From an uncultured Candidatus Saccharibacteria bacterium (GTDB lineage Bacteria; Patescibacteriota; WWE3; CAZQQZ01), in the NCBI GenBank assembly GCA_964595755.1, contig CAZQQZ010000003.1, positions 1 to 36,371 on the forward strand: a stretch of 36,371 nt of DNA. Direction: 5' to 3'. A program made the translations under genes and the position numbers. Numbering within the stretch: the first letter of the stretch is position 1; each line of letters opens with the position of its first letter. The notes under the pieces are model-generated. The model worked only from the letters and a program-made list of their open reading frames with translations, searched no databases and had not been told where the DNA came from. Shown here piece after piece: positions 4,549 to 6,337 of this stretch.

Positions 4549-5357
4549 TATCCCCCCACCGGCAGATACGCGTTCGTTTGAATATAAGATCTTGCCAACT
4601 CAAAATAGCATTTATCTTTGTCCAAAAACGGCAGGGATTCGCATATTTCTGGATCTGACGTTTCTTTGGCAACCTTAATCAAACACTCATCCATGGTCTT
4701 TTTACCCAACACCATTTCGCAAAGATATTTATCCCCTCTCGCAACTGCGATTTTCGCGTAACACTCGTTTCTTAGGTCCGTCGAAAGACTTTCACAATAA
4801 TCCGAACTCCTTGAAAGGACAGCCATACAATAAGTACTTTCTTCCCCTTGAATTTGACTGCAGGCTTTGGTATCTCTTCTGGCAAGGGCAGTGCAAAGAT
4901 CATTGTAGCTAATCTTTAACCCAGAAGCTTTAGAACAAAGTTCCGGTTTTTTGTATCCCACGGCGAAGTTGAAATAGCAGTCGTTCGGGTAGAGAGTGCC
5001 ATAATCGCAAAAAGAAGCGTCCTTTTTTGATTCCGCCAGCTTGTCGTAGCATCTTTTCTTACGGTTTAGCGATAATTTATCGCAGTATTTTTCATCTTGA
5101 AGGGAAAAGGCAAGGCATTCGTTTTTTAAAAAGGAAAGGGGAATTTTTTGGCAATAACTTGGATCACTGGAGGTTTCCGCAAGGCAGGTGGCTTGGTTTA
5201 CCGTAAGTTTTATTTGCTGACAATATGAGGCAACGGTTCTTTCTTCTTCCGTATCTGCCGTTTCAAAATTGATATTAATTTTTCCCCCAATAACGTATTT
5301 CTGGGTTACGAAGGCGAGTATTCCTGCAATTAGGGCTAGAAATATAAATTTTTTCAT
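4545..5357 (-). CDS. Secreted or anchored protein with Cys-rich helical repeats
   Basis: MKKFIFLAL signal or anchor, then ~25 aa repeats such as DPSYCQKI...NEC, DEKYCDKL, DKYLCEMV and DPEICESL. Confidence 0.8.
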   Translation of the reverse strand: MKKFIFLALIAGILAFVTQKYVIGGKININFETADTEEERTVASYCQQIKLTVNQATCLAETSSDPSYCQKIPLSFLKNECLAFSLQDEKYCDKLSLNRKKRCYDKLAESKKDASFCDYGTLYPNDCYFNFAVGYKKPELCSKASGLKISYNDLCTALARRDTKACSQIQGEESTYCMAVLSRSSDYCESLSTDLRNECYAKIAVARGDKYLCEMVLGKKTMDECLIKVAKETSDPEICESLPFLDKDKCYFELARSYIQTNAYLPVGGY

Positions 5358-5364
5358 TGGTGAT

Positions 5365-5619
5365 TTAATTATACACGCTTTGCCGATGTTCAATGGCAGA
5401 TATTCTAATAAGTCTCTCTTTTAGTAAAACTTCGTAGAGGATTCGATAAGGCCACGCCCGGGCCGATCGGAGATTTTTGAGTTCTCCCTCAAGTTTTTTA
5501 CCAGTTAAAGGATCATTTTTTATTTTTGCCACACCTAGAGCCGCCTTTTTTCTCTGCTCGTGGTTAAGTTTGCGAAATTGTTTAAGAGAGGGTCCTGTAA
5601 AGGGTATTTCAAACTTCAT
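5365..5619 (-). CDS. RelE/ParE-family toxin
   Basis: NDPLTGKKLEGELKNLRSARAWPYRILY...IEHRQSVY is a typical RelE pattern. Confidence 0.88.
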   Translation of the reverse strand: MKFEIPFTGPSLKQFRKLNHEQRKKAALGVAKIKNDPLTGKKLEGELKNLRSARAWPYRILYEVLLKERLIRISAIEHRQSVYN

Positions 5620-5821
5620 TTAAGAATTCTTCATAAGTAACAATTTTTCCCTTACGAAAATCTTCTGCACTTTCCCGAATAGTTTTCATGAGTTTTTTAT
5701 TAGATAAAATCTCCATTGTTTCTTCCCAAGAGTCCACTTCTTCAAGAATGGTGTAAAAATTTGACCGTGCTAGGCTGGCGGGAATTGTTTCCGGTAGTTT
5801 TTTGCTATAATAAACTTGCAT
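5609..5821 (-). CDS. Phd/YefM-family antitoxin, apparently internally deleted
   Basis: TIPASLARSNFYTILEEV N-terminus and WEETMEILSNKKLM C-terminus; overlaps the toxin start. The start codon is uncertain. Confidence 0.7.
   Translation of the reverse strand: MQVYYSKKLPETIPASLARSNFYTILEEVDSWEETMEILSNKKLMKTIRESAEDFRKGKIVTYEEFLNEV
5803..5811 (+). promoter_or_regulatory. Extended -10 element (TGcTATAAT) for the tRNA-Gln locus
   Basis: Located 10 nt upstream of the dead tRNA 5'-end copy at 5822. Confidence 0.6.
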
Positions 5822-5936
5822 TCGGGTGTCGCTTGTCTCGCCACATCTACCGATGTGGCGGATCTAATGGCCCGCCTCGACTCGCTCGCCTCGCGGAAGC
5901 TGGCGAAGCGAGCCGTCTCAGCGAGGCAGGTAGGAC
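5822..5936 (+). repeat. Degenerate copy of the tRNA-Gln 5' end with two palindromic inserts (5832-5862 and 5871-5930)
   Basis: Removing the inserts leaves TCGGGTGTCG+TCTAATGG+TAGGAC, versus the tRNA TCGGGAATCGTCTAATGGTAGGAC (22/24 identical). Confidence 0.85.
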
Positions 5937-5946
5937 CCATCTTTAC

Positions 5947-6204
5947 ATGTTTGAAGTCTATGTTCTAAAAAGTGAAAAGGCGAAGAAGAGTTATGTCGGA
6001 TCTACCAACGATATCCAACGAAGGCTGACTGAGCATAACTCTGGTAAGTGTTTTTATACCAAACGCTATTTACCTTGGAGATTGATTTACGAAGAAAGCT
6101 TTGAAGACGAAGGAGATGCTAGAAAAAGGGAGAATTATTTTAAGACGAGTGTTGGGAGAAGATTTCTTAAGAAAATATTTGATTGTTATTCGGGAATCGT
6201 CTAA
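5947..6204 (+). CDS. Small stand-alone GIY-YIG nuclease
   Basis: VYVLKS...SYVGST...RRLTEHNSG...YTKRYLPWRLIYEE...ARKRE. The last codons overlap the tRNA-Gln 5' end. Confidence 0.92.
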   Translation: MFEVYVLKSEKAKKSYVGSTNDIQRRLTEHNSGKCFYTKRYLPWRLIYEESFEDEGDARKRENYFKTSVGRRFLKKIFDCYSGIV

Positions 6205-6263
6205 TGGTAGGACACGTCCCTCTGGAGGACGGTATCTTGGTTCGAATCCAGGTTCCCGAGCCA
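6190..6263 (+). tRNA. tRNA-Gln(CTG)
   Basis: TCGGGAA/TTCCCGA acceptor stem, anticodon arm CGTCC-CTCTGGA-GGACG, T-loop GTTCGAAT and encoded CCA. Confidence 0.96.
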
Positions 6264-6337
6264 CACTTAGCGTGGCTAAAGTGCGCTAAAACGGGCACTC
6301 TATGCATATCGCGTGACTCCAGCTCGCTCACGAGGAG

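Follow-up and report, generated by a model that had tools for sequence, protein, structure and literature searches.

How does a gene for an 85-amino-acid nuclease come to lie between a dead fragment and an intact copy of the same tRNA gene? The question is raised by a locus in a window of 36,371 nucleotides (the whole stretch of DNA that was analysed), which belongs to contig C3 of an assembly of 620,518 bases that is 94.6% complete. The answer favored here, at a probability of about 0.6, is that the locus is a minimal, integrase-free selfish cassette, in which an Slx1-type nuclease gene lies between two partial copies of its target tRNA and which would be addressed by homology.

Layout of the tRNA-Gln locus

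The cassette lies behind an extended -10 box of the form TGnTATAAT (TGCTATAAT; 5803..5811, plus strand), which is the predicted promoter of the original tRNA gene. The gap between the box and the tRNA remnant is 10 nt, and the box lies 9-11 nt before the intact tRNA-Val, -Lys, and -Pro genes of the same genome. By itself the box is not enriched genome-wide (44 found versus 47 expected), and it was absent from the output of a two-hexamer promoter scan, which demands a -35 hexamer. It sits inside the first codons of a divergent antitoxin-like ORF. Divergently from the cassette, at 5365-5821 of the minus strand, run this Phd-like antitoxin ORF (Pfam E 0.001, under the cut-off) and a ParE-type toxin ORF (E 1.2e-6). 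Since the antitoxin ATG abuts the first base of the remnant and its first codons hold the -10 box, the antitoxin's own promoter would lie in the remnant region.

The remnant consists of three plus-strand pieces separated by two inserts. The first piece (5822..5831) corresponds to tRNA-Gln positions 1-10, with two differences from the CTG gene and one from the TTG gene, while the second (5863..5870) and the third (5931..5936) match positions 11-18 and 19-24, respectively. Insert 1 (5832..5862) is a 31-nt GC-rich hairpin between tRNA positions 10 and 11, with a folding energy of -16.8 kcal/mol. Insert 2 (5871..5930) comprises 60 nt after the D-loop GG, made up of a 32-nt REP-like hairpin and a nested unit of 28 nt (5886-5913). 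No tRNA base is missing at either insert. Together, the three pieces showed 22/24 identity to the adjacent CTG gene and were nearer to the other tRNA-Gln of the genome (TTG, 23/24); the remnant may derive through a TTG-type allele or may simply have decayed. The match is not due to chance, because the gapped three-piece pattern matched the 620-kb genome at three sites only: the two real tRNA-Gln genes and the remnant itself. The locus did not pass the automated cognate-remnant score (2.9% of non-cognate tRNAs scored equally high), because the remnant carries two inserts.

The stand-alone GIY-YIG gene (5947..6204, plus strand; Pfam PF01541, E 1.3e-15) encodes 85 amino acids of the Slx1/UPF0213 type. 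Its last four codons and TAA stop are formed by positions 1-15 of an intact tRNA-Gln(CTG) (6190..6263, plus strand; ARAGORN and Rfam), the sole CTG isoacceptor found in the assembly. A 3' trailer hairpin (6258..6289, plus strand) was found by blastn also at tRNA-Gln(TTG) and at a third place on contig C5. The intact gene shares this hairpin and an unusual start with the other tRNA-Gln of the genome, and the shared hairpin suggests that the intact tRNA is of host type. On C5 (16108-16148), about 2 kb beyond tRNA-Gln(TTG), the 3' end of tRNA-Gln and its trailer hairpin occur once more, in the manner of an attachment-site scar. The leader of the cassette has a folding energy of -62.4 kcal/mol (z -3.3). 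In the window, only two tRNAs reached the Rfam gathering threshold, and no intron RNA core was found there. Box, remnant with two inserts, ORF, and 15-nt stop overlap all stand where a preliminary description of the locus had placed them.

The cassette is no assembly artefact of this genome, because contigs from two of four runs, possibly of the same site or campaign, cross it without a break (5300 to 6287 and 5300 to 6263). A joint skipping the cassette, an empty allele, or an excision joint was not found in the contigs of the four runs, from which rare variants are dropped.

The nuclease and its linkage to tRNA genes

The Pfam domain spans residues 4-69 of the 85, and the predicted model (pLDDT 92) consists of one minimal GIY-YIG domain, without auxiliary domain or DNA-binding extension. 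Residues Y5, Y16, G18, R26, H30, E62, and K66 are kept in 183-185 of 185 homologues, and the conserved Tyr, Tyr, Gly, Arg, His, and Glu are presumably the GIY-YIG catalytic residues. Past K66, no alignment column reaches 70% conservation, and a C-terminal Asn is not conserved. A sequence search of the PDB matched only the UPF0213 proteins 1ywl and 1zg2, which are assigned to the Slx1 lineage, apart from homing endonucleases, in the UPF0213 passages of PMC1564403. Foldseek placed UPF0213, HIGLE, and Slx1 structures at ranks 1-13, versus E 0.18 for I-TevI and E 0.96 for UvrC, and the model TIGR01453 of group I intron endonucleases scored 24.6 bits against a cut-off of 56.05. Judged by sequence and structural model, the protein is thus of the Slx1/UPF0213 type and not an I-TevI-type homing endonuclease, and the earlier proposal of homing in the I-TevI or SegB sense was not supported. 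Twelve homologue pairs point to purifying selection, with dN/dS values of 0.05-0.16 in six and saturated synonymous sites in the other six.

Homologues were detected in 34 of 41 genomes, with 112 matches outside this genome; among the genomes returned, no relative closer than class was available for this locus. The best-scoring 69 loci, holding 74 ORFs, were analyzed for their neighborhood. These analyses revealed that 55 of the 74 homologous ORFs in class relatives adjoin a tRNA or tmRNA gene on the same strand, whereas an opposite-strand tRNA was nearby in one. Thirty-three ORFs end at -45 to +60 of the start of a same-strand tRNA or contain that start, another 22 begin behind a tRNA or tmRNA at a distance of at most 250 nt, and 19 are unlinked to tRNA. 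The same two tests gave a background of 7 + 17 = 24 of 643 ORFs in the present genome. In a replication with 20 further loci, 16 lay within 275 nt of a tRNA, and a cognate remnant with a hairpin was read by eye in all seven cases in which the ORF precedes the tRNA. Outside the class group, the linkage is mostly in the order tRNA-then-ORF (Bacteroidota 10/12, Chloroflexota 10/11). A tRNA-free subclade of small GIY-YIG proteins also occurs in Patescibacteria (L062, L070, L073, L077-L086, and others); this subclade and the 19 unlinked ORFs speak against the cassette reading.

Fifty-eight non-redundant ORF-then-tRNA cases from all sources were available, and the layout recurs among them at tRNAs of 17 amino-acid types. 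In 36 of the 58, a remnant in the 200 nt upstream outscored every non-cognate tRNA of a 194-tRNA library, and the best-matching amino-acid type was the cognate one in 42. A REP-like hairpin stood just before the ORF in 35 of 58 cases, compared to 9 of 156 control windows. A hairpin occupies the register of insert 1 (10/11) at five further Gln loci (L031, L068, L133, L152, L153), and that of insert 2 (18/19, after the D-loop GG) is also occupied in Gln loci L036 and L107. Across the survey, the shortest remnants measure about 12 nt and the longest comprise almost the entire tRNA; hairpins interrupt them in the D-stem, D-loop, anticodon arm, or T-arm, and the fixed entry near the D-arm proposed earlier is therefore not supported. 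A fixed target-site duplication was likewise rejected, since remnant length varies. The ORF stop overlaps the tRNA in 25 of 58 cases, mostly at -10 (8) and -15 (7). A functional need for this overlap was rejected, because it is found in these 25 only and the conserved tRNA bases at -10 and -15 happen to spell TAG and TAA.

This genome encodes six such ORFs; for five, a same-strand tRNA lies no more than 100 nt away, and the remaining one is found about 500 nt behind the tmRNA. On contig C18 the layout recurs at tRNA-Pro, where the dead copy is near-complete, with a hairpin in place of its T-arm. The tRNA-Gly, -Arg, -Thr, and -Ser genes have hairpin-bearing dead 5' copies in front of them as well, but with no intervening ORF. 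In dead copies of tRNA-Gly (twice) and tRNA-Arg, the 32-nt core of insert 2 is found at the same register behind the D-loop GG with its orientation reversed, and to judge by these sequences this reversal suggests separate insertion events.

Duplicates without a nuclease were also found among relatives. Of 26 other tRNA-Gln loci, picked by tRNA likeness from 134 genomes, none had such a gene within 700 nt, which indicates low occupancy, and seven carried an ORF-less 5' duplicate within 130 nt upstream (by eye). ORF-less tRNA-Gln 5' duplicates were recorded at L250, L252, L254, L255, L256, L260, L261, and L268; in several the piece is repeated downstream in inverted form, and some are tandem; these duplicates are possibly a different or non-autonomous element. 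At L227 and L228, the part of the tRNA between D-loop and 3' end is repeated in tandem 3' of the intact tRNA-Gln, and every repeat carries a double hairpin.

These counts bear on the preliminary description in different ways. Its picture of an integrase-free, tRNA-targeting, and probably selfish cassette agrees with the 55 of 74 ORFs at tRNA or tmRNA genes and with the congeneric empty alleles described below, and the survey that it proposed did reveal enrichment at tRNA genes (55/74 versus 24/643), with upstream remnants that are usually cognate. It had named two observations that would speak against it. One of them, duplicates without the nuclease, was made at 7 of the 26 Gln loci and at four loci of this genome; the other, a lack of enrichment, was not.

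Empty alleles, lineage fidelity and hairpins

The empty alleles that had been suggested for comparison exist in congeners for Lys, Pro, Phe, Gly, and Gln, at six loci of relatives. In four filled/empty genome pairs, Lys(TTT) in G043/G019, Pro(TGG) in G027/G109, Phe in G131/G133, and Gly(CCC) in G111/G109 and G110, the remnant follows the same upstream sequence as the tRNA of the empty allele, and behind the ORF the intact copy begins anew at +1. Because the sequences upstream of the empty tRNA and of the remnant align, the remnant usually stands at the place of the original tRNA. At Gly(GCC) of G111, a cassette with a CCC-type remnant lies upstream of the resident leader and tRNA. For Gln(CTG), the intact gene of G007 is 97% identical to the empty allele of G017 and the remnant is another allele; about 570 extra bases in G007 hide the left boundary. 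Genome G022 holds the closest nuclease of the class (59%), and both of its tRNA-Gln genes share a D-arm type that is missing from the remnant. In the filled Gly locus L301 of G111, orthologous to the tRNA-Gly(CCC) of its congeners (L302, L303), the intact tRNA nevertheless reads GCC, and the hairpin of the remnant contains a GCC anticodon loop; an anticodon conversion by the cassette and an assembly chimera are both possible.

Across the empty/filled pairs, the intact copy showed 91-100% identity to the empty allele. Whole-tRNA replacement, which the preliminary description had considered for the present locus, was set aside, since the intact copy is host-type in the tested pairs (the pair G005/G015 is ambiguous) and, in this genome, shares its start and trailer hairpin with the other tRNA-Gln. 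The acceptor strand was identical between remnant and intact gene in 26 of 44 cases and belonged to a different allele in others, the 44 being those of the 58 that passed the score plus up to five named by hand, with about six misplaced, including this locus. Among Gln loci, the remnant had the acceptor strand of its own intact gene in 8 of 17, compared to 0.95 on shuffling. At one position, a Lys remnant has the base of the empty allele and the intact copy does not. From these alignments, the working tRNA appears to be host-type and the remnant mostly a copy of the local allele, sometimes carried in; this mixed origin is not fully explained by a single simple mechanism.

The number of nuclease copies per genome ranged from 0 to 8 among 134 genomes, with at least one match at E 1e-7 in 51. 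At tRNA-Gln(CTG), upstream gene and promoter are shared by the congeners G005 and G015, whose nucleases are only 33% identical, the G015 nuclease being 76% identical to a protein from another genus. The nearest neighbor of a nuclease was associated with the same tRNA type in 24 of 48 cases, compared to 7.1 on shuffling (0 of 5000 shuffles reached 24), and in 7 of 26 compared to 0.9 when Gln and Ser were left out; kin are not independent in this label test, and kinship inflates the result. A quick tree of 87 columns, with 90 of 181 forks open, was used only for Gln clades, and fidelity was taken from the nearest-neighbor test. As far as such comparisons go, related nucleases keep their tRNA type and unrelated ones hit one site independently.

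Fidelity of this kind is also what classical homing would produce, in which a nuclease with a defined recognition sequence would cleave the D-arm of the empty tRNA gene and repair would then bring in the ORF together with the whole tRNA of the donor. According to its abstract, SegB provides a precedent by cutting tRNA motifs (PMC2330249), and the remnants that differ from the adjacent tRNA, with the Lys remnant mentioned above, point in the same direction. Homing is nevertheless highly improbable: the protein has no DNA-binding domain and matches the I-TevI fold only at the E value given above, the position of the junction varies, and the intact copy is host-type in the tested pairs. Moreover, the whole tRNA gene persists in the filled allele, so that a sequence target would survive there.

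The purifying selection would also suit a gene useful to its host, kept under strong tRNA promoters to resolve cruciforms at the numerous palindromes, shield tRNA genes against integrating elements, or act on RNA, for which the duplication was merely the route of arrival. Slx1 broadly cuts branched DNA, as outlined in PMC6902002, and a TrmH fusion noted in PMC1564403 hints at RNA metabolism. The patchy distribution (51/134), the divergent multiple copies, and the independent replacement at one congener site fit selfish turnover better, and a host function is regarded as quite improbable.

Hairpin excess, defined as the count over a reversed-pattern control, correlated with nuclease number across the 134 genomes (rho 0.46; within-family permutation p 0.006), its median being 1, 1, 10, and 29 for 0, 1, 2-3, and at least 4 nuclease copies, respectively. 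The link lost significance when only the largest family was considered (rho 0.16, p 0.15) and when family means were compared (p 0.38). Y1 transposases, present in 62 of the 134 class genomes, also correlated with hairpin excess (rho 0.40); around the two of this genome's four Y1 genes that were examined, the hairpin pattern was not found. These transposases are a rival mover of the hairpins, which form a separate REP-like family. They are central to a reading of passive hitch-hiking, in which tRNA hot spots gather tandem duplications and REP-like hairpins moved by RAYT-like Y1 enzymes and the GIY-YIG genes are carried along or tolerated.

Several observations suit this reading. The present genome has four Y1_Tnp genes, and one Y1 transposase-like gene (C16:698-976) lies between tRNA-Tyr and tRNA-Trp; ORF-less duplicates exist; and hairpins of the same types are present in the RNase P RNA gene of this genome and in the variable arm of a tRNA-Leu. 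The RNase P RNA-like gene (C19:15005-15459, L321) measures 455 nt compared to a 367-position model, contains several hairpins, and falls below the Rfam cut-off, and the variable arm of tRNA-Leu(GAG) (C5:26955-27042) consists of one short hairpin unit, the gene still being called by ARAGORN. When each number was controlled for the other, however, the stronger partial correlation stayed with GIY-YIG number (0.32, compared to 0.22 for Y1). Genomes with at least two GIY-YIG genes and no Y1 match had a hairpin excess of 3-27 (n = 5), versus 0-12 in the reverse class (n = 7). A GTAG/CGTC-like tag, as REP tags are defined in the relevant part of PMC3733652, lay within 8 nt of only 4 of 35 hairpins. 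Hitch-hiking also leaves the strand polarity (55 versus 1 of 74), the tRNA-type fidelity, and the purifying selection unexplained, and is considered unlikely. Two tyrosine recombinase matches (PF00589) were located on C17 and C24, not in the cassette contig.

Proposed mechanism and known systems

If the locus is a selfish cassette, its Slx1-type product would be expected to cleave tRNA genes where their DNA is branched or forms hairpins, recognizing structure and not sequence, and host recombination would paste the cassette by tRNA homology. A domain of 85 residues leaves little space for recognizing a long site; the tRNA type is kept all the same, and the carried tRNA piece would therefore supply the address. 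A crossover inside that fragment could generate two partial tRNA copies around the ORF. At an essential gene, only products with a well-paired downstream tRNA would survive, which would leave the old promoter followed by a dead front copy and the ORF followed by a working tRNA. Such crossover and survival would explain why remnants are cognate and differ in length, and why both gene orders occur. The hairpins may enter at breaks made by the nuclease and thereby kill the front copy. A delivery vehicle is a further presumed step; with a single-protein query, no relatives were found in viral contigs, phages, or plasmids.

Expression may be coupled to the tRNA as well. One transcript would run from the tRNA promoter through remnant and ORF into the tRNA; use of this promoter, as predicted from the sequence, and the intact tRNA left behind are in line with what the preliminary description had suggested. 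An RNase P cut at tRNA +1 would free the tRNA and remove the stop of the ORF. As an RNase P RNA-like gene and tmRNA are present, the message would be left stop-less and nuclease output might be damped via tmRNA, a prediction that applies to fewer than half of the cases.

A wider proposal is put forward tentatively, namely that these cassettes are among the smallest autonomous bacterial mobile elements, in which a structure-selective Slx1-type nickase, lacking integrase, transposase, and DNA-binding domain, would find its site via a carried tRNA fragment, duplicate the tRNA on insertion, switch target by acquiring a new fragment, and drive GC-rich hairpins into tRNA genes and further genes of structured RNAs across Patescibacteria and other phyla. 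The analysis gives a testable role to the very large family of 80-amino-acid "GIY-YIG nuclease family proteins," which are mostly annotated as uncharacterized repair enzymes, and it explains the presence of many tRNA fragments and palindromes in reduced genomes. For annotation, it is a warning that tRNA remnants in such genomes are footprints of mobile DNA. If the mechanism is true, site-directed integration at essential single-copy genes would be possible with an 85-amino-acid protein and homology. New here are the comparison of empty and filled congeneric alleles, the Slx1 assignment, and the direct comparison with Y1 transposases. No description of the cassette layout was found in the openly accessible full-text literature that was searched, and the locus is a real member of an apparently undescribed class.

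The closest known proteins are the Slx1-like UPF0213 members (1ywl, 1zg2), which share with the cassette protein a minimal GIY-YIG domain without a conserved C-terminal Asn. In the passages of PMC1564403 that deal with them, they are predicted repair enzymes of mostly vertical descent, and tRNA linkage, multicopy spread, or flanking tRNA repeats are not mentioned. Phage T4 SegB is likewise encoded by a GIY-YIG gene in a tRNA region and spreads itself without intron or integrase; it recognizes a 27-bp site at a T-arm motif and moves the whole region between phages, and its abstract reports no partial tRNA duplication or hairpin (PMC2330249). Unlike SegB, the cassette protein is chromosomal and of the Slx1 lineage. 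I-TevI and SegB homing endonucleases carry C-terminal NUMOD modules, whereas the cassette protein ends after the catalytic domain; cognate empty alleles, as homing endonucleases have, were found at six loci of relatives.

Integrase islands also split a tRNA gene, leave a partial copy, and restore an intact tRNA. They have a fixed att core, usually at the tRNA 3' end, whereas the cassette has a 5' remnant that is variable and interrupted by hairpins, and the 85-amino-acid ORF alone, with no integrase, lies between the tRNA copies. REP/REPIN sequences with their RAYT, in the account of PMC3733652, resemble the cassette hairpins in being GC-rich, multicopy, nested palindromes correlated with a small nuclease-type gene. 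In contrast to them, the hairpins here mostly lack tags and lie inside tRNA remnants and structured-RNA genes, and the linked gene is a GIY-YIG gene. Group I and II introns interrupt a single tRNA and have an RNA core, whereas here the ORF is followed by a tRNA without interruption. Non-intron insertions in the rRNA genes of CPR bacteria contain GIY-YIG ORFs that were judged not to be spread by homing (PMC11270868); these ORFs belong to the same bacterial group and likewise place GIY-YIG in stable-RNA genes outside group I/II introns; the words "tRNA" and "hairpin" do not occur in the main text of that paper. The cassette would thus act like a free-standing homing nuclease with an island-like footprint, yet it departs from homing endonucleases, integrase islands, REP/RAYT systems, and introns in the features that define each of them.
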